A stretch of DNA of 31,081 nucleotides, from the IMG/VR virus record IMGVR_UViG_2526164667_000037. The stretch is one strand, 5' to 3'. The position numbers and the translations under genes were made by a program. A model generated the notes under the pieces. It did no database searches. It saw only the letters and a list, made by a program, of their open reading frames with translations, and was not told the DNA's origin. Shown piece after piece: positions 4,101 through 24,530 of this stretch (position 1 is the stretch's first letter; each line of letters opens with the position of its first letter). This DNA is from a virus (taxonomy: Duplodnaviria; Heunggongvirae; Uroviricota; Caudoviricetes).

Positions 4101-6375
4101 AGCCTCCGGGCGTTTTGTCCCTCCTTCAGCATTTGCTGCAGGCACCGGTAAGGCGTTTACCGATGCTTATGCATGGAACGCGCCACGCGAGGCCGTCGGG
4201 CGCGAAAGACCCCTTACACGTGACGAGATGCGTCAGGTGCAAGGTGTTTTATCCACGATTAACCGCCTGCCTTACTTTTTGCGTTCGCTGTTTACTTCAC
4301 GCTATGACTACATCCGGCGCAATAAAAGCCCGGTGCACGGGTTTTATTTCCTCACATCCACTTTTCAGCGTCGTTTATGGCCGCGCATTGAGCGCGTGAA
4401 TCAGCGCCATGAAATGAACACCGACGCGTCGTTGCTGTTTCTGGCAGAGCGTGACCATTATGCGCGTCTGCCGGGGATGAATGATAAGGAGCTGAAAAAG
4501 TTTGCCGCCCGTATTTCATCGCAGCTTTTCATGATGTATGAGGAACTCTGCGATGCCTGGGTGGATGCGCATGGCGAAAAAGAATCGCTGTTTACGGATG
4601 AGGCGCAGGCTCACCTCTATGGTCATGTTGCTGGCGCTGCACGTGCTTTCAATATTTCCCCTCTCTACTGGAAAAAATACCGTAAAGGACAGATGACCAC
4701 GAGGCAGGCATATTCTGCCATTGCCCGTCTGTTTAACGATGAGTGGTGGATTAGTCAGCTTAAAGGCCAGCGTATGCGCTGGCATGAAGCGTTACTGATA
4801 GCTGTCGGGGAGGTCAATAAAGACCGTTCTCCTTATGCCAGTAAACACGCCATTCGTGATGTGCGTGCGCGCCGCCAGGCAAATCTGGAATTTCTTAAAT
4901 CGTGTGACCTTGAAAACAGGGAAACCGGCGAACGCATCGACCTTATCAGTAAGGTGATGGGCAGTATTTCTAATCCTGAAATTCGCCGGATGGAGCTGAT
5001 GAACACCATTGCCGGTATTGAGCGTTACGCCGCCGCAGAGGGTGATGTGGGGATGTTTATCACGCTGACCGCGCCGTCAAAGTATCACCCGACACGTCAG
5101 GTCGGAAAAGGCGAAAGAAAAACCGTCCAGCTTAATCACGGCTGGAATGATGAGGCATTTAATCCAAAGGATGCGCAGCGTTATCTCTGCCGTATCTGGA
5201 GCCTGATGCGCACGGCATTCAAGGATAATGATTTACAGGTCTACGGTTTGCGTGTCGTCGAGCCACACCACGACGGAACGCCGCACTGGCATATGATGCT
5301 TTTTTGTAATCCACGCCAGCGTAACCAGATTATCGAAATCATGCGTCGCTATGCGCTCAAAGAGGATGGTGACGAAAGAGGAGCCGCGCGAAACCGTTTT
5401 CAGGCAAAACACCTTAACCGGGGCGGTGCTGCGGGATATATCGCGAAATACATCTCAAAAAACATCGATGGCTATGCACTGGATGGTCAGCTCGATAACG
5501 ATACCGGCAGGCCGCTGAAAGACACAGCGGCGGCTGTTACCGCATGGGCGTCAACGTGGCGCATACCACAATTTAAAACGGTTGGCCTGCCGACAATGGG
5601 GGCTTACCGTGAACTACGCAAATTGCCTCGCGGCGTCAGCATTGCTGATGAGTTTGACGAGCGCGTCGAGGCTGCACGCGCCGCCGCAGACAGTGGTGAT
5701 TTTGCGTTGTATATCCGCGCGCAGGGTGGGGCAAATGTCCCGCGCGATTGTCAGACTGTCAGGGTCGCCCGTAGCCCGTCGGATGACGTTAACGAGTACG
5801 AGGAAGAGGTCGAGAGAGTGGTCGGCATTTACGCACCGCATCTCGGCGCGCGTCATATTCATATCACCAGAACGACGGAGTGGCGCATTGTGCCGAAAGT
5901 TCCGGTCGTTGAGCCTTTGACTTTAAAAAGCGGCATCGCCGCGCCTCGGAGTCCTGTCAATAACTGTGGAAAGCTCACTGGTGGTGATACTTCGTTACCG
6001 GCTCCCACACCTTCTGAGCACGCCGCAGCAGTGCTTAATCTGGTTGATGACGGTGTTATTGAATGGAATGAACCGGAGGTCGTGAGGGCGCTCAGGGGCG
6101 CATTAAAACACGACCTGCGAACGCCAAACCGTCAGCAAAGAAACGGAAGCCCGTTAAAACCACATGAAATTGCACCATCGGCCAGACTGACCCGGTCGGA
6201 AAGAATGCAAATTACCCGTATCCGCGTTGACCTTGCTCAGAACGGTATCAGGCCGCAGCGATGGGAGCTTGAGGCGCTGGCGCGTGGCGCGACCGTAAAT
6301 TATGACGGGAAAAAATTCACGTATCCGGTCGCTGATGAGTGGCCGGGATTCTCAACAGTAATGGAGTGGAAATGA
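4090..6375 (+). CDS. A: Replication initiation protein A (rolling-circle nicking endonuclease), 761 aa
   Basis: Start MAVKASGRFVPP at 4090 gives the P2 A length; contains PHWHMMLF (HUH-type motif) and Tyr-rich active-site region; sequence matches P2 A as I recall it. Confidence 0.95.
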   Translation: MAVKASGRFVPPSAFAAGTGKAFTDAYAWNAPREAVGRERPLTRDEMRQVQGVLSTINRLPYFLRSLFTSRYDYIRRNKSPVHGFYFLTSTFQRRLWPRIERVNQRHEMNTDASLLFLAERDHYARLPGMNDKELKKFAARISSQLFMMYEELCDAWVDAHGEKESLFTDEAQAHLYGHVAGAARAFNISPLYWKKYRKGQMTTRQAYSAIARLFNDEWWISQLKGQRMRWHEALLIAVGEVNKDRSPYASKHAIRDVRARRQANLEFLKSCDLENRETGERIDLISKVMGSISNPEIRRMELMNTIAGIERYAAAEGDVGMFITLTAPSKYHPTRQVGKGERKTVQLNHGWNDEAFNPKDAQRYLCRIWSLMRTAFKDNDLQVYGLRVVEPHHDGTPHWHMMLFCNPRQRNQIIEIMRRYALKEDGDERGAARNRFQAKHLNRGGAAGYIAKYISKNIDGYALDGQLDNDTGRPLKDTAAAVTAWASTWRIPQFKTVGLPTMGAYRELRKLPRGVSIADEFDERVEAARAAADSGDFALYIRAQGGANVPRDCQTVRVARSPSDDVNEYEEEVERVVGIYAPHLGARHIHITRTTEWRIVPKVPVVEPLTLKSGIAAPRSPVNNCGKLTGGDTSLPAPTPSEHAAAVLNLVDDGVIEWNEPEVVRALRGALKHDLRTPNRQQRNGSPLKPHEIAPSARLTRSERMQITRIRVDLAQNGIRPQRWELEALARGATVNYDGKKFTYPVADEWPGFSTVMEWK

Positions 6376-6827
6376 TGGCAAAAATTCACGAGGTAAAGCT
6401 GCACGCCAAATATTTTGACCTTGTGCTGGAAGGAAAGAAACGCGCAGAGTTTCGGAAAAATGACCGTAATTATGAGCGCGGGGACACGCTGATTTTGCAT
6501 GAATGGGTACAGGGTGTGTTTACGGGGCGAAAGGTTGAAGCCCGGATAACAGATGTTACTGACCTGTCAGACTGGCTGGAAGATTATGTCTTGCTAAGTA
6601 TTGAGCTGCTTAATACAGGCGCATATGAGATTGTGAACTGGAAAGAACTTAGTGAGCGTGGTCTGGTATTCAGAATTAATCATGAAATTATGCATCAGCT
6701 CGGTCTTGCTGTTATGTATGAGTCAGTGACAGGCCTGTCTGGCGGAGCAGTGGTTGCCACGGATGGAGCATGGAACTATTCAGATGAACAGATGGAGCGT
6801 GCACAGCAAAACGGGTGGCTTGGATAA
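6372..6827 (+). CDS. ASCH/DUF3850-like (PUA-fold) protein, about 151 aa, coupled to A
   Basis: ATG overlaps the A stop (ATGATG at 6372-6377); N-terminus KIHEVKLHAKYFDLVLEGKKRAEFRKNDRNYERGDTLILHEW looks like an ASCH-type domain (recognised by eye, not searched). Confidence 0.65.
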   Translation: MMAKIHEVKLHAKYFDLVLEGKKRAEFRKNDRNYERGDTLILHEWVQGVFTGRKVEARITDVTDLSDWLEDYVLLSIELLNTGAYEIVNWKELSERGLVFRINHEIMHQLGLAVMYESVTGLSGGAVVATDGAWNYSDEQMERAQQNGWLG

Positions 6828-7048
6828 TGCACAGAATACCAGGCGAGATACCGCACCATAAAACTAAAAATATCAAGCTGATGGCCATTGTTCACCGTCT
6901 ACAGCAGATTATGGTAAACGAAAATCTGACGCCTGATGAGCTGGTCGGGTGTGCGCAAATTGTTAGGGATAATTACGAGCGTTTGAACGATATGATTCAG
7001 CTTGGTACTTTCCAGCCAACAATACCTTTCTGGGGGCAACCTCGATAA
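6827..7048 (+). CDS. Hypothetical small protein (73 aa)
   Basis: ATG 6827 overlapping the previous stop (TAATG); no recognisable family. Confidence 0.45.
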   Translation: MHRIPGEIPHHKTKNIKLMAIVHRLQQIMVNENLTPDELVGCAQIVRDNYERLNDMIQLGTFQPTIPFWGQPR

Positions 7049-7053
7049 CCATA

Positions 7054-7096
7054 AAACCCTGCAGGTGCTGAAACTTGTTTTCAACACCTGCAGGGT
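7054..7096. repeat. Perfect 13-bp inverted repeat (AACCCTGCAGGTG ... CACCTGCAGGGTT) with 17-nt loop
   Basis: Read directly in the sequence; not followed by a T-run; sits at the boundary between the phage-GC region and the AT-rich cassette. Confidence 0.8.
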
Positions 7097-7170
7097 TGAG
7101 CAATGAGCGGCGCTAGGAGTTAGCAGCCTAGATTTCTGAATGTAACCCATTATAAAAATGATTTTGTGAT

Positions 7171-7200
7171 TTGAAGCTTGGAATTAAAATGAGTTAAAAT
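7171..7200 (+). promoter_or_regulatory. Candidate sigma70 promoter for the AT-rich cassette
   Basis: TTGAAG (7171-7176), 18-bp spacer, TAAAAT (7195-7200), within an AT-rich leader upstream of ATG 7267. Confidence 0.3.
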
Positions 7201-7266
7201 GAGTAGTGTTAACAGGCTGATAAACTAAACCAAGTAAGTTGTAAAAATAAATAGTGGAGTGTACAA

Positions 7267-7653
7267 ATGACACAGCAATATGTTAAAGACGTCATGATTG
7301 GTCAGAGGAAATTGCTTTCATCTAATACTTTCATAATTCCAAAAGGTGAAATGTGTGATTTTAAATTAAATATATCTGATGACGAGAATGAGTTTAACTT
7401 TCCTATTCGCATTGCCTTTGATGATGATGGCGGTTCAACTCAATCAGTTGAGTTCAAACCAGATCCATCCTCAAGCTCTATGAAAATGATCTTGCATAAC
7501 TGGAATAACCCTCTTGGCTCTGCGCTGAAAGAGTTTTACCCTATTGTTAATATCGAGAATAGAACAACAATTGAAATGCTTATGGTAAATAAAAGACTTG
7601 GCGATGTAAATGAACTGGTTATTCAATTCTGGCGAAAGGTCGAAATGTCATGA
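7267..7653 (+). CDS. Hypothetical protein, 128 aa, no recognised domain (first gene of AT-rich cassette)
   Basis: ORF with GGAG 7 nt upstream of ATG; low GC; stop overlaps the next start (ATGA at 7650-7653). Confidence 0.7.
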   Translation: MTQQYVKDVMIGQRKLLSSNTFIIPKGEMCDFKLNISDDENEFNFPIRIAFDDDGGSTQSVEFKPDPSSSSMKMILHNWNNPLGSALKEFYPIVNIENRTTIEMLMVNKRLGDVNELVIQFWRKVEMS

Positions 7654-8006
7654 ATAAGCCAAAAATAGAACTAGCTACAATTCCTGTCTCGCCTGATGAT
7701 ATATCCACTAACTTGCAGGTGGGTGTAATAGTTGTTAGTGAGGATAAGTTGATTCGCATCCTTGAAAAGGATCGGGAGAGGACTAAAAAGAATATGGCTT
7801 GGACAGCTCCTGCTAGTTTTTTTATCACATTGATTGTTGCAATATTAACAACTGATTTTAAAAGTCGGTGGGGTATGCCTGCGGAAGCATGGCAGGCGCT
7901 TTTTTATGTAGGGGCGGGATTATCTGCAATCTTTGCTGTTATTTATTGGTGTAAAGTAGACAGAAAAGACATGGATAAGTTGATTGAAGAGATAAAAGGT
8001 AAATAG
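7650..8006 (+). CDS. Small membrane protein, 118 aa, two predicted TM helices (second gene of cassette)
   Basis: Hydrophobic segments WTAPASFFITLIVAILTTDF and AWQALFYVGAGLSAIFAVIYW flanked by charged residues; translationally coupled to the upstream ORF. Confidence 0.7.
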   Translation: MNKPKIELATIPVSPDDISTNLQVGVIVVSEDKLIRILEKDRERTKKNMAWTAPASFFITLIVAILTTDFKSRWGMPAEAWQALFYVGAGLSAIFAVIYWCKVDRKDMDKLIEEIKGK

Positions 8007-17176: not shown

Positions 17177-17621
17177 GTTTAAGCGTTTTGAAGACCGGCT
17201 GACCGGACTGATTGAATCGCTGTCACCGTCAGGGCGTCGGCGACTGAGCGCCGAACTGGCGAAACGTCTGCGGCAGAGTCAGCAGCGTCGGGTGATGGCT
17301 CAGAAAGCCCCGGACGGCACACCCTACGCGCCACGCCAGCAGCAGAGCGCCAGAAAAAAGACTGGTCGTGTTAAGCGAAAAATGTTTGCGAAACTTATCA
17401 CCAGTCGTTTTTTGCATATCCGCGCCAGCCCGGAACAGGCATCAATGGAGTTTTACGGCGGGAAGTCACCGAAAATCGCCAGTGTGCATCAGTTCGGTCT
17501 GTCGGAAGAAACCCGGAAAGACGGTAAGAAAATTGATTATCCGGCGCGTCCTCTGCTCGGCTTTACCGGTGAGGATGTGCAGATGATTGAAGAGATTATT
17601 CTGGCTCACCTCGACCGTTAG
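17169..17621 (+). CDS. S: Tail completion protein S (150 aa)
   Basis: Length and position as P2 S. Confidence 0.9.
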   Translation: MNEFKRFEDRLTGLIESLSPSGRRRLSAELAKRLRQSQQRRVMAQKAPDGTPYAPRQQQSARKKTGRVKRKMFAKLITSRFLHIRASPEQASMEFYGGKSPKIASVHQFGLSEETRKDGKKIDYPARPLLGFTGEDVQMIEEIILAHLDR

Positions 17622-19580: not shown

Positions 19581-20184
19581 TTCGCGACTGCTGCCGACCG
19601 GCTCATCACCGCTTGAAGTTGCCGCCGCAAAAGCCTGTGCGGAAATTGAAAAAACGCCGGTCAGTATTCGTGAGCTGTGGAACCCGGATATCTGTCCGGC
19701 AAATCTGCTGCCGTGGCTGGCGTGGTCATTTTCGGTTGACCGCTGGGATGATAAGTGGCCGGAAGCGACAAAACGCGCTGTTATCCGCGATGCGTATTTC
19801 ATTCACTGCCATAAGGGCACTATTGGTGCGATTCGCCGTGTGGTGGAGCCGCTCGGCTATCTGATTGAGGTGAGGGAGTGGTGGCAGCTCAACGAGGAGC
19901 CGGGGACGTTCCGCATCGTTGTTGGCGTGCTTGAGCAGGGTATTACCGAGGAAATGTATCAGGAGCTGGAGCGTCTCGTTGCTGATGCAAAACCTGCAAG
20001 CCGCCATCTGACGGGACTGGCTATCAGTTTAAGTACAACCGGCAACATTTTTGCCGGTGCGGGATGCTATCACGGTGACGCCCTGACGGTTTATCCCTAC
20101 ACCCCGGAGGCCATTATTGTCGGAGGGGATTATTTCCCGGCCTCGGCCATTCATTTAATTGATAACCTGAGAGTAAACGCATGA
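19573..20184 (+). CDS. I: Baseplate protein I
   Basis: ORF overlapping the J stop; position as P2 I; exact start uncertain (the ORF is longer than the P2 I length I recall). Confidence 0.85.
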   Translation: MSDSRLLPTGSSPLEVAAAKACAEIEKTPVSIRELWNPDICPANLLPWLAWSFSVDRWDDKWPEATKRAVIRDAYFIHCHKGTIGAIRRVVEPLGYLIEVREWWQLNEEPGTFRIVVGVLEQGITEEMYQELERLVADAKPASRHLTGLAISLSTTGNIFAGAGCYHGDALTVYPYTPEAIIVGGDYFPASAIHLIDNLRVNA

Positions 20185-21518
20185 CAGTGAAATACTACGC
20201 CATTCTGACTAATCAGGGCGCGGCACGGCTGGCTAACGCGACGATGCTCGGCAGTAAGCTGAATCTGACGCAAATGGCCGTTGGTGATGCGAATGGTGTC
20301 TTGCCGACACCAGACCCGGCACAGACAAAACTGATTAACCAGAAACGCATCGCGCCGCTGAATCTTCTGAGTGTTGACCCGAACAACCAGAGCCAGATTA
20401 TTGCGGAGCAAATCATCCCTGAGAACGAGGGCGGATTCTGGATCCGTGAGATTGGGCTTTATGATGATGAAGGCGTACTCATTGCGGTGGCGAACTGCCC
20501 GGAAACGTACAAACCGCAGTTGCAGGAAGGCAGCGGTCGTACCCAGACTATCCGCATGATTCTGGTTGTCACGAATACCGAAGCCATCACGCTGAAAATC
20601 GACCCGTCGGTGGTACTGGCGACCCGTAAATACGTGGATGATGAAGTCCTGGAATTAAAGCTGTATGTGGATGACCAGATGAGAAACCACATTGCCGCAC
20701 AGGATCCTCATACCCAGTATGCACAGAAACATAATCCGACATTTACCGGAGAACCAAAAGCGCCGACGCCTGCCGCAGGAAATAACACCACGCGGATTGC
20801 GACCACTGCGTTTGTACAGGCCGCTATTACCGCTCTGATTAACGGTGCGCCTGCCACGCTGGATACACTGAAAGAAATTGCCGCAGCCATTAACAATGAC
20901 CCGAAATTCAGCACCACCATTAACAATGCGCTGTCAGGTAAGCAGCCACTGGATGAGACGCTGACTCATTTGAGTGGGAAGGATGTTGCCGGTCTTCTCG
21001 CATACCTTGGTTTGGGAGAAGGCTCTGCATTACCTGTCGGTGTGCCTGTTCCGTGGCCTTCCGCCACTCCGCCGACAGGCTGGCTAAAATGCAATGGTGC
21101 GGCTTTTTCTGCTGAAGAATACCCGGAACTGGCAAAGGCTTACCCGACAAATAAATTGCCTGATTTACGCGGTGAATTTATTCGTGGCTGGGATGATGGG
21201 CGTAGTGCGGATGCGGGGAGAACAATATTATCCGCTCAGGGCGATGCCATACGTAATATCTATGGTGAGTTCAAGACTGTAAACACCGAAAATTATTCAA
21301 TATGGGAATCAGTAGGCTCGTTTAAGGGGGCAGTGGTGCCTTTGAACCCCTCAACGAACAATAGTTATTTCTCCTTAGTCAGAAGTATGGTGACAGAAAG
21401 GTCCGAGGGCGGTGTTTACCCAAAAGTGATTGGCCTTGATGCTTCAAGAATTGTTCCAACTGCAAACGAAAATCGACCCCGTAACATTGCCTTTAATTAT
21501 ATCGTGAGGGCTGCCTGA
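20181..21518 (+). CDS. H: Tail fibre protein (445 aa): P2 H-like N-terminal anchor, non-P2 C-terminal receptor-binding part with tail-collar-like motif
   Basis: N-terminal part is H-family-like; C-terminal part (VPWPSATPPTGWLKCNGAAFSAEEYPELAKAYP...LPDLRGEFIRGWDDGR) resembles the phage tail-collar domain; much shorter than P2 H; spans crossover site 20994-21019. Confidence 0.85.
   Translation: MTVKYYAILTNQGAARLANATMLGSKLNLTQMAVGDANGVLPTPDPAQTKLINQKRIAPLNLLSVDPNNQSQIIAEQIIPENEGGFWIREIGLYDDEGVLIAVANCPETYKPQLQEGSGRTQTIRMILVVTNTEAITLKIDPSVVLATRKYVDDEVLELKLYVDDQMRNHIAAQDPHTQYAQKHNPTFTGEPKAPTPAAGNNTTRIATTAFVQAAITALINGAPATLDTLKEIAAAINNDPKFSTTINNALSGKQPLDETLTHLSGKDVAGLLAYLGLGEGSALPVGVPVPWPSATPPTGWLKCNGAAFSAEEYPELAKAYPTNKLPDLRGEFIRGWDDGRSADAGRTILSAQGDAIRNIYGEFKTVNTENYSIWESVGSFKGAVVPLNPSTNNSYFSLVRSMVTERSEGGVYPKVIGLDASRIVPTANENRPRNIAFNYIVRAA
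20994..21019. repeat. Inversion crossover site, left (hix/gix/cix-like 26-bp site inside the tail-fibre gene)
   Basis: TTCTCGCATACCTTGGTTTGGGAGAA; 21 of 26 positions match the reverse complement of 22606-22631, with a perfect shared 14-bp block TTGGTTTGGGAGAA; encodes GLGE at the constant/variable junction. Confidence 0.75.
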
Positions 21519-22123
21519 TGGATAAAGCTATATTAAATAAGGAACTCATCGCCACAAAGGCGGGAGATATTACCGTTTATAATTATGATGGTGAAACACG
21601 AGAATATATTTTCACATCAACCGAATATCTTGCTGTGGGTGTCGGTATCCCGGCATGTTCCTGTTTAGATGCTCCTGGCTCATATAAAGCTGGTTATGCA
21701 ATTTGCCGTTCTGCAGATTTTAACTCATGGGAATATGTGCCAGACCATCGCGGTGAAATCGTCTATAGCACCGAAACAGGAGAATCAAAAGAAATCACAG
21801 CTCCGGGTGATTACCCTGAAAAGACAACCACTATCGCCCCGTTAACGCCATACGATAAATGGGATGGTGAGAAATGGGTGACGGATACCGAGGCACAGCA
21901 TAGAGCAGCAGTAGACATGGCAGAAACACAGCGGCAGTCGCTGATTGATGCTGCAATGGTTTCCATTAGTCTGATTCAACTGAAATTGCAGGCCGGGCGG
22001 AAGCTGACGCAGGCAGAAAACACCCGACTTAACGCCGTGCTGGATTACACTGACGCGGTGATGGCAACAGATACCAGCACCGCGCCAGATGTCATCTGGC
22101 CAGTTCCTCCTGAGACGGTTTAA
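21518..22123 (+). CDS. Tail fibre assembly chaperone (Tfa, functional analogue of P2 G), 201 aa
   Basis: Immediately downstream of the tail fibre gene; C-terminal region ending ...PDVIWPVPPE is typical of Tfa chaperones. Confidence 0.75.
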   Translation: MDKAILNKELIATKAGDITVYNYDGETREYIFTSTEYLAVGVGIPACSCLDAPGSYKAGYAICRSADFNSWEYVPDHRGEIVYSTETGESKEITAPGDYPEKTTTIAPLTPYDKWDGEKWVTDTEAQHRAAVDMAETQRQSLIDAAMVSISLIQLKLQAGRKLTQAENTRLNAVLDYTDAVMATDTSTAPDVIWPVPPETV

Positions 22124-22289
22124 TCTCAATCAGAATGGGTTCTCCCTTCTCGTTAACAGATATTTCCATTCCTTCAGGGATTTCAGATGCAGTAAAAAAC
22201 CAGTTATCTTCTGGTAATTCAACAGCCCCGGTCACGTCATGAAGACCGGGGATTACTTCAGTCAAAGTAACAGGATTAAACAGGCGCAC
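22092..22289 (-). CDS. Putative alternative small tail-fibre-assembly protein (Tfa') inside the invertible segment
   Basis: Reverse ORF; best start is GTG 22289 with GGAGG 7 nt upstream, just after the alternative fibre cassette stop (an ATG at 22379 gives a 95-aa version); its 3' end overlaps the forward Tfa by 32 bp; function inferred from position only. Confidence 0.3.
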   Translation of the reverse strand: MRLFNPVTLTEVIPGLHDVTGAVELPEDNWFFTASEIPEGMEISVNEKGEPILIEIKPSQEELAR

Positions 22290-22605
22290 AATAAACCCTC
22301 CAGGAAAAAGCACTTGTTGATGGTGTTCCGTCGTACATCTGGCAGCGGACATAAAAACCGGTATTAGTGACCTGGTCATCCACGATCATTGAAACGTGAA
22401 CGTTATTAGATGTGCCCCCATAATCCGTTCCTATTCTTTCCGCTATGCTGATAAAACGTGAAAGCTTAGGTAGCGCAATTGGATAAACGACTTTAGCCAG
22501 TCCATTATCATTAGAACCCCCCGTTCCAAAGACTTCTATTGCACCATCTGACCAGCGTATCCACGCACCATTGGCATTAGCTCCTCGCTGAATGACATAT
22601 CTGGC
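22276..22605 (-). CDS. Promoterless alternative tail-fibre C-terminal cassette (S'v-like), silent in this orientation
   Basis: Reverse frame runs through the right crossover site encoding the same GLGE junction as the tail fibre gene, then about 108 aa of different sequence (ARYVIQRGANANGAWIRWSDGAIEVFGTGG...); inversion would fuse it to H residues 1-279. Confidence 0.6.
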   Translation of the reverse strand, partial: ARYVIQRGANANGAWIRWSDGAIEVFGTGGSNDNGLAKVVYPIALPKLSRFISIAERIGTDYGGTSNNVHVSMIVDDQVTNTGFYVRCQMYDGTPSTSAFSWRVYCAPV

Positions 22606-22631
22606 TTCTCCCAAACCAACGTTTAAGAAAA
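22606..22631. repeat. Inversion crossover site, right (hix/gix/cix-like)
   Basis: TTCTCCCAAACCAACGTTTAAGAAAA, inverted relative to 20994-21019; about 55 bp upstream of the invertase gene. Confidence 0.75.
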
Positions 22632-22686
22632 TGCAGAGATTATGGCTAACTGGCATCATCTCCGGTTTTTATTCAGGGGGATGCTC

Positions 22687-23280
22687 ATGCTTATTGGCTA
22701 TGTACGCGTGTCAACAAATGACCAGAACACGGAATTGCAGCGTAATGCGCTGGAGTGCGCAGGATGCGAGCGGATTTTTGAGGATAAAATCAGCGGCACG
22801 AAGTCCGACCGACCGGGACTGAAAAAACTGCTCAGAACATTATCAGCAGGTGACACTCTGGTGGTCTGGAAGCTGGACAGGCTGGGGCGTAGTATGCGGC
22901 ATCTGGTCATTCTGGTTGAGGAACTGCGCGAACGCGGCGTTAATTTTCGCAGCCTGACGGATGCTATTGATACCAGCACGCCGATGGGGCGTTTTTTCTT
23001 TCATGTGATGGGTGCCCTGGCTGAAATGGAGCGAGAACTCATTGTCGAGCGGACACGCGCCGGACTGGAAGCGGCCAGAGCCAAAGGTCGTATTGGTGGC
23101 AGACGACCGAAACTCACTGCGGGTGAGTGGGAGCAGGTCGGACGGTTGCTGGCTGCGGGGGAATCTCGTCAACGTGTGGCGCTGATTTTTGATATTGGTC
23201 TGTCCACGCTCTATAAAAAATTCCCCTCATCAGCGACAAAGAATAAATTGTGTCATCCCTTAGCCAACCGGGACAAATAG
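22687..23280 (+). CDS. Serine DNA invertase (Gin/Pin/Cin/Hin family), about 197 aa
   Basis: Start MLIGYVRVSTNDQNTELQRNALECAGCERIFEDK...; catalytic-Ser N-terminal domain and C-terminal HTH (GLSTLYKK) closely resemble Mu Gin as I recall it; the upstream ORF extension from 22642 is rejected. Confidence 0.9.
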   Translation: MLIGYVRVSTNDQNTELQRNALECAGCERIFEDKISGTKSDRPGLKKLLRTLSAGDTLVVWKLDRLGRSMRHLVILVEELRERGVNFRSLTDAIDTSTPMGRFFFHVMGALAEMERELIVERTRAGLEAARAKGRIGGRRPKLTAGEWEQVGRLLAAGESRQRVALIFDIGLSTLYKKFPSSATKNKLCHPLANRDK

Positions 23281-23339
23281 CCTGACATCTCCGGCACAAC
23301 TGAAAATACCACTCACCCATTAACCACGGAGTTAAACGG

Positions 23340-24530
23340 ATGAGTGACTATCATCACGGCGTGCAGGTGCTGGAGATTAACGACGGCACCCGCGTCATTT
23401 CCACCGTATCCACCGCCATTGTTGGCATGGTCTGCACGGCCAGCGATGCGGATGCGGAAACCTTCCCCGTCAATAAACCGGTGCTGATCACCAATGTGCA
23501 GAGCGCGATTGCAAAGGCCGGTAAAAAAGGCACGCTGGCGGCATCGTTGCAGGCCATCGCTGACCAGTCAAAACCGGTCACCGTTGTCGTACGTGTGGAA
23601 GACGGCACCGGCGAAGACGAAGAAACGAAACTCGCGCAGACCGTTTCCAATATCATCGGCACCACCGACGAAAACGGTCAGTACACCGGACTGAAAGCCC
23701 TGCTGGCGGCGGAGTCAGTAACCGGTGTTAAACCGCGTATTCTCGGCGTGCCGGGACTGGACACCAAAGAGGTGGCTGTTGCACTGGCATCAGTCTGTCA
23801 GAAGCTGCGCGCTTTCGGGTATATCAGCGCATGGGGCTGTAAGACCATTTCCGAGGTGAAAGCCTACCGCCAGAATTTCAGCCAGCGTGAGCTGATGGTC
23901 ATCTGGCCGGATTTCCTCGCATGGGATACGGTCACCAGTACCACCGCCACCGCGTATGCCACCGCCCGTGCGCTGGGTCTGCGTGCCAAAATCGACCAGG
24001 AGCAGGGCTGGCATAAAACGCTGTCCAACGTCGGGGTAAACGGTGTTACCGGCATCAGTGCCTCTGTATTCTGGGATTTGCAGGAGTCCGGCACCGATGC
24101 TGACCTGTTGAACGAGTCAGGTGTCACAACGCTGATTCGCCGTGACGGTTTCCGCTTCTGGGGTAACCGTACCTGCTCTGATGACCCGCTGTTCCTTTTT
24201 GAAAACTACACCCGCACCGCGCAGGTGCTGGCCGACACGATGGCTGAGGCGCACATGTGGGCGGTGGACAAGCCCATCACCGCAACGCTGATTCGCGACA
24301 TCGTTGACGGCATCAATGCCAAATTCCGTGAGCTGAAAACAAACGGCTATATCGTGGATGCGACCTGCTGGTTCAGCGAAGAATCCAACGATGCGGAAAC
24401 CCTCAAGGCCGGAAAACTGTATATCGACTACGACTATACCCCGGTGCCTCCTCTTGAAAGCCTGACCCTGCGCCAGCGTATCACCGATAAATACCTGGCA
24501 AATCTGGTCACCTCGGTTAACAGCAATTAA
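23340..24530 (+). CDS. FI: Tail sheath protein (396 aa)
   Basis: Length and position as P2 FI. Confidence 0.95.
   Translation: MSDYHHGVQVLEINDGTRVISTVSTAIVGMVCTASDADAETFPVNKPVLITNVQSAIAKAGKKGTLAASLQAIADQSKPVTVVVRVEDGTGEDEETKLAQTVSNIIGTTDENGQYTGLKALLAAESVTGVKPRILGVPGLDTKEVAVALASVCQKLRAFGYISAWGCKTISEVKAYRQNFSQRELMVIWPDFLAWDTVTSTTATAYATARALGLRAKIDQEQGWHKTLSNVGVNGVTGISASVFWDLQESGTDADLLNESGVTTLIRRDGFRFWGNRTCSDDPLFLFENYTRTAQVLADTMAEAHMWAVDKPITATLIRDIVDGINAKFRELKTNGYIVDATCWFSEESNDAETLKAGKLYIDYDYTPVPPLESLTLRQRITDKYLANLVTSVNSN

Follow-up and report, generated by a model that had tools for sequence, protein, structure and literature searches.

Tail-fibre genes that are switched by DNA inversion have been described several times in P2-like phages and in related elements. 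Goldberg et al. (2014, PMC4272514) detected inversions in two P2-like prophages of enteropathogenic Escherichia coli (EPEC) E2348/69, of which the one with four variants was confirmed by polymerase chain reaction, and Zaworski et al. (2021, PMC7953296) described a fibre inversion beside fin in Fels-2, the tail fibre being inverted between Salmonella LT2 and LT7. An invertase with inverted neighbouring genes has also been reported in the Z/fun hotspot of P2 (Egorov et al., bioRxiv 10.1101/2024.10.15.618418), and a possible role at the level of the lysogen, the blocking of T2 adsorption, has been raised for the related segment of e14 (Kirigo et al. 2025, PMC12529663). In this study, we characterized a tail-fibre locus of this kind in the virus record IMGVR_UViG_2526164667_000037, a stretch of 31,081 nucleotides (nt; hereafter the window) that is a P2-like (Peduovirus) prophage of E. 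coli with an integrase at its left end and a host cation-efflux gene at its right end.

The analysis leads us, with high confidence, to a two-state invertible tail-fibre segment of ~1.61 kb in this prophage, which is of the Mu G, P1 C, and e14 P type and lies at the fun(Z) hotspot; the locus is probably a real, working host-range switch. A preliminary description, made from the sequence without database searches, had already likened it to the Mu G segment placed inside a P2 backbone, and every structural element of that arrangement that we examined held. The features concerned are listed below by their positions in the window, with open reading frame abbreviated as ORF and base pairs as bp.

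20181-21518, plus strand: tail-fibre gene H (ORF), 445 residues as sequenced
20181-21006, plus strand: constant part of H, residues 1-275, common to both fibre versions and colinear with H of P2-like phages
20995-21020, plus strand: left 26-bp crossover site inside H, TTCTCGCATACC-TT-GGTTTGGGAGAA, core at 21007-21008
21009-21518, plus strand: expressed variable tip Hv, collar-type, 165 residues after GLGE, with Pfam Collar at H residues 287-334
21518-22123, plus strand: tail-fibre assembly protein (Tfa), 201 residues, partner of the collar-type tip; Pfam Caudo_TAP (E = 7e-30) and phrog_105 'tail fiber assembly'
22092-22289, minus strand: 65-residue ORF after the silent tip, GTG start, candidate small fibre partner or chaperone; also called by the Prokaryotic Genome Annotation Pipeline in the E. 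coli Z142-6 locus (99.7% identical)
22276-22617, minus strand: silent alternative tip Hv', 109 residues after GLGE, fused in frame upon in silico inversion
22276-22659, minus strand: 127-residue ORF that holds Hv' as sequenced
22606-22631, plus (top) strand: right 26-bp crossover site, TTCTCCCAAACC-AA-CGTTTAAGAAAA, core at 22618-22619
22687-23280, plus strand: serine DNA invertase of the Gin/Pin/Cin/Hin family, 197 residues; Pfam Resolvase (E = 8e-53) and HTH_7, phrog_125 'DNA invertase'
22705-22776, plus strand: stretch homologous, in a gapless alignment, to the annotated recombinational enhancer of P1 cin; putative enhancer

In the mechanism that we propose, the Pin-like serine invertase would bind both 26-bp sites and would be assisted by host Fis bound at the enhancer in the 5' end of the invertase gene, after which cutting at the 2-bp cores and strand rotation would reverse everything between 21008 and 22618. 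The 275-residue constant part of H, which in the sequenced orientation runs into the collar-type tip followed by the 201-residue assembly protein, would in the inverted orientation run in frame into the 109-residue knob-type tip followed by the 65-residue protein. If the switch is active in this strain, as we would expect, a population of lysogens could yield two kinds of phage with different receptor-binding tips, and the analogy with Mu and P1 suggests that inversion would change the host range.

Crossover sites

An inverted repeat is present at 20995-21021 and 22605-22631, in which 22 of 27 positions match and the perfect inner run is 15 nt long (TTGGTTTGGGAGAAG). The two 26-bp inverted crossover sites that had been proposed, one in the fibre gene and one upstream of the invertase, were found here, at 20995-21020 and 22606-22631. 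Both sites are composed of 12-bp half-sites that flank a 2-bp core; the cores read TT on the left and AA on the right of the top strand and are therefore in inverted orientation. The sites also bear out the suggested kinship with the hix/gix/cix sites. Using a degenerate consensus (TTNTCNNAAACCNNGGTTTNNGANAA) that was modelled on gix and hix sites, with three or fewer mismatches allowed, we found exactly two matches in the whole window, namely, the two sites with one mismatch each; 0.01 matches were expected, and none of 100 shuffles gave two or more (0/100). The same consensus recovered Mu gix, e14 pix, and the annotated P1 cixL at one to two mismatches.

The left site was found, with 0 to 1 nt different, in five of the loci that were compared (L001, L002, L003, L005, and L006). 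Both sites come very close to those of e14, the left one resembling the left pix site and the right one differing by 1 nt from the right-hand pix site. A search with the conserved arm detected no third crossover site in the window. This result indicates a two-state switch, and a four-state shufflon, as in one EPEC prophage, was rejected on the same ground.

Fusion of the constant fibre part to either tip

The N-terminal part of H carries the Pfam Phage_tail_fib N-terminal domain at residues 1-150 (E = 2.7e-62). As had been recognized, the sequenced H continues without a frame change into the collar-type tip, and its Pfam Collar match falls within the variable part. Hv shows 56% amino acid identity to e14 StfE across 183 residues, and the 201-residue assembly protein shows 89% to e14 TfaE. 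The expressed cassette is related to Stf/Tfa of HK97 as well, at ~90% nt identity from 21001 onward, and this kinship with HK97 and e14 is the familiar mosaic swapping of fibre tips between unrelated coliphages.

Reverse-complementing 21008-22618 joins H residues 1-280, which end in GLGE, in frame to ARYVIQRG...YCAPV. The product, H', consists of 389 residues, compared with 445 for H as sequenced; the reverse-strand cassette, whose fusion with the constant region of H had been predicted, does fuse in frame. Across the site, both frames encode GLGE, as the preliminary description had stated: H reads ...LLAYLGLGEGSALP, and the minus-strand ORF reads ...FLNVGLGEARYV. Because the inner arm of the sites is identical over 15 nt, this agreement is not an independent coincidence. 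Each tip is followed by a gene of its own, the first by Tfa and the second by the 65-residue ORF. The tip lengths needed a small correction, since we counted 165 residues for the expressed tip and 109 for the silent one instead of 166 and 108; the length of the chaperone, 201 residues, stood.

Two further observations concern the edges of the cassettes. The stretch that is ~90% identical at the nt level to stf/tfa of HK97, a lambdoid phage, and to other siphophages spans 21001-22101, from within the left crossover site almost to the end of the Tfa gene; the left site coincides with a mosaic boundary. At the other end, the silent tip ORFs of the window (22620-22659, minus strand; MMPVSHNLCIFLNVGLGE...) and of e14 stfE (L010, 4117-4156, minus strand; MPFACYFFIFINVGLGE...) begin with a short leader, the codons of which come from the right site (outer half) and from the spacer that precedes the invertase. 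Owing to these short leaders, the silent tips appear as spurious stand-alone ORFs, which annotation pipelines call 'hypothetical protein' or pseudogene.

Both orientations in natural genomes

We compared the in silico inverted junction with complete E. coli genomes and found it as contiguous sequence in real chromosomes. Two strains from chickens in Germany, DG341-1 and DG343-1, have chromosomes of equal length, the same flanking proteins, and identical flanks, and the sole difference between them is that the 1583 bp between the arms of one are the exact reverse complement of those of the other. The DG segment is 99.5% identical to positions 21007-22622 of the window; between the DG locus and the window, the right sites are identical and the left sites are 1 nt apart. 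Both orientations of a virtually identical segment, therefore, exist in nature.

The flipped state was also found in a P2-like prophage of strain FDN-9, the backbone of which is 98% and the invertase 99% identical to those of the window; FDN-9 aligns to the in silico inverted window as a single piece of 4164 nt across the left junction. In three further chromosomes (L012-L014), the alternative tip is fused to H, the collar cassette is silent, and an invertase lies alongside. Among isolated phages, pro483 has the collar cassette on the silent strand, and 'P2' of O157:H43 T22 and MET_P1_103_31 express it. FDN-9 and FDN-24, which were considered as a second sister pair, are not one, since the element matched in FDN-24 is a different, e14-like one; junction-query matches starting at 136-147 are consequently not countable as 'unflipped'.

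Invertase and putative enhancer

The serine invertase at 22687-23280 adjoins the fibre genes and belongs to the Gin/Pin family, as first proposed: besides its Pfam and PHROG assignments, it shows 86% amino acid identity to e14 PinE, 78% to P1 Cin, and 76% to Mu Gin, and it matched the crystal-structure sequence of Mu Gin in the Protein Data Bank (PDB) with an E value of 9e-93. The N terminus, MLIGYVRVS, carries the catalytic Ser9, and the C-terminal helix-turn-helix domain is present. Only six positions that are invariant across PinE, Cin, and Gin differ in this invertase; all six changes are conservative, and three of them are shared with the invertase beside a segment that demonstrably flips.

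The P1 record places the Cin enhancer at cin +19 to +90, and the homologous stretch of the window (22705-22776) is 76% identical to cin, 72% to gin, and 86% to pin. Candidate Fis cores of the form G-N13-C are located at 22708-22722 and 22757-22771, in the same codons and register as in gin and pin, and, measured from the centre of the site, the first core is 96.5 bp away, compared with 95.5 bp in Mu. By homology and geometry, it is plausible that an enhancer lies here, within the 5' part of the invertase coding sequence.

A promoter and terminator scan of 20900-23400 gave nothing informative on invertase expression. A weak terminator-like hairpin followed by TTTTATTC is present at 22648-22667, between the right site and the start codon of the invertase, and it might reduce the transcription that reaches the invertase gene from the fibre operon. 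At the other end of the gene, the C-terminal tail of the invertase, ...KNKLCHPLANRDK, is not present in Gin, Cin, or PinE.

The silent cassette and its candidate small partner

A silent tip and a small alternative chaperone had been placed on the opposite strand. The tip was borne out by the in-frame fusion; the chaperone role is a reading from gene position and weak similarity, and we return to it below. Hv' matched the C terminus of phrog_2557, a virion-protein PHROG (E = 3e-21), and gave a weak match to Pfam Gp53-like_C (20.6 bits, under the 24.9-bit cutoff). It is fused to H in real genomes (L005 and L012-L015). The ratio of nonsynonymous to synonymous substitution rates (dN/dS) was 0.1 to 0.2 for Hv' and ~0.2 for the 65-residue ORF, the latter against copies of 86 to 88% identity. 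Both cassettes are under purifying selection.

The 65-residue ORF had no Pfam match and is not a member of the Caudo_TAP/Tfa family. Its PHROG matches were weak, namely, the Tfa family phrog_188 (E = 3.6e-4) and phrog_5400 over positions 1-66 of 145. The partial match to phrog_5400 suggested a truncated Tfa; this was rejected since the homologues are equally short and conserved, with dN/dS of ~0.2, and one stands alone in Kosakonia. Of 141 homologue clusters, the 120 listed measure 47 to 90 residues, most of them 57 to 65, and the genera of Enterobacterales in which the family occurs number at least eight (Escherichia, Enterobacter, Salmonella, Kosakonia, Cronobacter, Hafnia, Citrobacter, and Yersinia). 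Strong conservation extends over the N-terminal 55 residues and gives way to a variable tail (alignment A1); the consensus of the 57- to 65-residue family is MRLFNPxTxTEVIPGxHDxxGAIELPDDNWFFT..EIPEGK.LAVNE.GEPILIDV.

The small gene always lies directly behind a gp53-like (knob) tip, with a 14-nt overlap, and this holds in P2-like, e14-like, and lambdoid elements (loci L017, L019, and L021). A P2-like phage of Kosakonia, which has neither invertase nor site, carries an H whose last 111 residues are 61% identical to Hv', then the small gene, and then directly FI; the small gene sits there in place of gene G, and the knob tip and the small gene are the only fibre genes of this phage. Taken together, the stand-alone Kosakonia case, the conservation of the family, and the dN/dS of ~0.2 point to a complete fibre module in the alternative cassette.

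The AlphaFold model of the 65-residue protein was a confident one, with a predicted local distance difference test score (pLDDT) of 86. A fold search with this model against the PDB found nothing under E = 1, and its best match in BFVD was a 60-residue 'tail fiber assembly protein' of Pantoea phage LIMEzero, a weak match (E = 0.075, probability 0.93). Judged from its gene position and weak similarity, the 65-residue ORF may have a chaperone-like role. It is quite possible, if a little short of probable, that it belongs to an uncharacterized family of ~60-residue proteins that replaces the canonical Tfa of 140 to 200 residues for knob-type (gp53-like) tips, as a minimal dedicated fibre partner or chaperone.

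The same cassette was observed elsewhere. In locus L016 (E. coli FDN-24, NZ_CP158147, 21096-23626), a knob-tip and 65-residue cassette of 98% nt identity is fused to a short fibre of 210 residues in an e14-like element, which has a YmfQ/gp46/gp47 baseplate, an invertase of its own, and an integrase beside dusA; the knob-tip and 65-residue cassette is therefore common to unrelated phage backbones. On a contig of Yersinia enterocolitica (L021, 2681-4986), a lambdoid side-tail-fibre locus carries an invertase and the two convergent cassettes of an invertible segment, each with a Gp53-like_C tip and a small ORF (57 and 74 residues); the consensus gave only one weak match to a crossover site in this locus, with four mismatches.

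Weighing the explanations

Several observations weigh against a switch of this kind and have to be set beside the evidence above. The direct evidence for inversion comes from genomes other than the sequenced one. The enhancer-homologous stretch is conserved no more than the rest of the gene (0.72-0.86 versus 0.71-0.85 identity), so its conservation could stem from protein coding alone, and the distal G-N13-C core has a G+C-rich centre. Hv' has no close relative among the isolated phages of our collection (best 36% identity), and for this reason neither a receptor nor a host range can be assigned to it. The 65-residue protein had no significant match to a known Tfa in pairwise BLASTP against three Tfa proteins, or in the PDB.

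The strongest competing explanation is a fossil switch, in which cassettes and sites were inherited, the segment no longer inverts here, and the silent cassette serves only as a reservoir for homologous exchange with other phages. Apart from the observation of inversion in other genomes only, it could appeal to the Z142-6 chromosome, the nearest full-length relative (99.7%), which is in the same orientation, and to the outer half of the left site (TTCTCGCATACC), which is off consensus at one position. However, the substitutions in the invertase, whose ORF is intact, are all conservative, the right and left sites are 0 and 1 nt different, respectively, from the DG sites that flank a flipping segment, the silent cassette has a dN/dS of ~0.2, and FDN-9, with a 99%-identical invertase, is in the other orientation. 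We therefore consider the fossil explanation unlikely.

It is less likely again, and in our view quite improbable, that inversion also or mainly serves the lysogen through a fibre-derived protein that blocks the adsorption of other phages. Such a case has been reported for e14 (Kirigo et al. 2025, PMC12529663), in which inversion of the 1797-bp P segment by PinQ leads to a chimeric StfE2 and, through it, to blocked adsorption of T2, and the collar tip and Tfa of the window are related to e14 StfE (56%) and TfaE (89%), with almost the same sites. We rank this explanation low because the fused gene is H, which belongs to the late operon of an apparently complete P2-like phage and not to a cryptic remnant. 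The late genes of P2 require activation by Ogr and are silent in the lysogen. In addition, no promoter-like site that would drive H or the cassettes in a lysogen was found in the scan of 20900-23400, and no sequence feature separates a lysogen role from the ordinary host-range role.

Lastly, RecA-dependent recombination between the inverted repeats, or assembly artefacts, might lie behind both orientations in place of site-specific recombination, given that the DG assemblies are equal in length and could come from one assembly pipeline, but this is hardly credible, since the shared arm is perfect over only 15 bp, which is too short for efficient RecA exchange, the breakpoints fall exactly within the 26-bp sites, and the flipped state is also present in independent genomes of other laboratories.

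Position in the P2 backbone and neighbouring cargo

The nt identity of the window to several P2-like phages is 96 to 97% across ~85% of its first 25 kb, and the Z142-6 chromosome matches the studied region as closely as stated above. The gene order runs from the baseplate genes J and I through H, the 201-residue assembly protein, the two minus-strand ORFs, and the recombinase to FI at 23340. In the annotation of P2, G and a terminator are followed by fun(Z), which is on the other strand, and then by the pF activator site and FI, and P2 homology picks up again at position 23260 of the window (P2 17572), inside the pF activator site. The invertase element thus occupies the slot of P2 Z/fun, as had been claimed, fun(Z) being annotated between G and pF. 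The feature that marks membership in this P2 hotspot, cargo between the fibre assembly gene and the pF promoter/FI, is present in the window.

The end of the invertase ORF (23243-23280) runs into P2 backbone sequence, and its final seven codons, with the stop counted, share sequence with the pF upstream element; in P2 coordinates, the annotated pF activator-binding site (17555-17583) is overlapped by the stretch that matches these seven codons. Another hotspot of the backbone, P2 old/tin, is occupied as well. Between gene A and the portal gene, positions 6339-8006 hold a three-part cargo that comprises an ASCH/DUF3850 plus DUF7415 protein (162 residues), a DUF6864 protein (128 residues), and an overlapping 118-residue ORF without a Pfam family; these proteins had no match in PADLOC.

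Comparison with known systems

The locus is a further case of a classic bet-hedging device of phages, with one cassette that was previously undescribed. In RefSeq records of this prophage, the 'hypothetical proteins' of 127 and 65 residues beside a 'recombinase family protein' are the silent half of a fibre switch, and NCBIfam has no specific family for any of the five proteins of the locus. The fibre protein predicted from an assembly depends on the orientation that happened to be sequenced, which matters for host-range prediction of P2-like prophages and of tailocin-like tools. The only new biological question that the locus raises is the small protein that accompanies the knob-type tip.

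The e14 P segment with PinE shares with the window an invertase of 86% amino acid identity, a right site 1 nt apart, the TT/AA core, and the layout of constant part, site, and tip with Tfa, followed by a convergent Tfa' and tip', site, and invertase; the collar tip and Tfa are homologous to StfE (56%) and TfaE (89%). By contrast, e14 is a defective element with a short StfP, whereas the window is a complete P2-like prophage with an H constant part of 275 residues. The second cassette of e14 is StfP/TfaP instead of a knob-type tip with a 65-residue protein, and the segment is 1.8 kb in e14 versus 1.61 kb in the window.

Mu G/Gin and P1 C/Cin belong to the same mechanism class and have a corresponding layout (S constant, site, Sv and U, U' and S'v, site, invertase), invertases that are 76 to 78% identical, and the same 26-bp site pattern. 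Their enhancer falls among the first 90 nt of the invertase gene, at ~96 bp from the crossover site, where the window has its homologous, putative stretch, and Mu S crosses gixL with LGLQE, which is similar to GLGE. However, the segment of the window is half as long as theirs or less, the tips and chaperones are unrelated, the core dinucleotide is TT/AA in the window and TC/GA in Mu, and one cassette of the window has a 65-residue protein and not a Tfa of ~175 residues.

The P2-like invertible segments that we compared were those of Fels-2 (fin), the prophages of EPEC E2348/69, and phages pro483, 'P2' of O157:H43 T22, S164, and MET_P1_103_31. Across most of the genome, the backbone of these relatives is 96 to 97% identical in nt sequence to that of the window. 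Their segments lie in the same slot, with the fibre genes on one side and FI on the other, have the same left site, and are accompanied by the same invertase, at 96 to 98% amino acid identity in pro483 and MET_P1. They differ in that the P2-like phages pair the collar-type cassette with another alternative cassette, which bears a Tfa of 147 residues, and in that the window has only two sites, and not the three repeats, with four states, of one EPEC prophage. The arrangement as such is already known from the literature, and its only mildly new element is the knob-type tip with a partner of ~60 residues.

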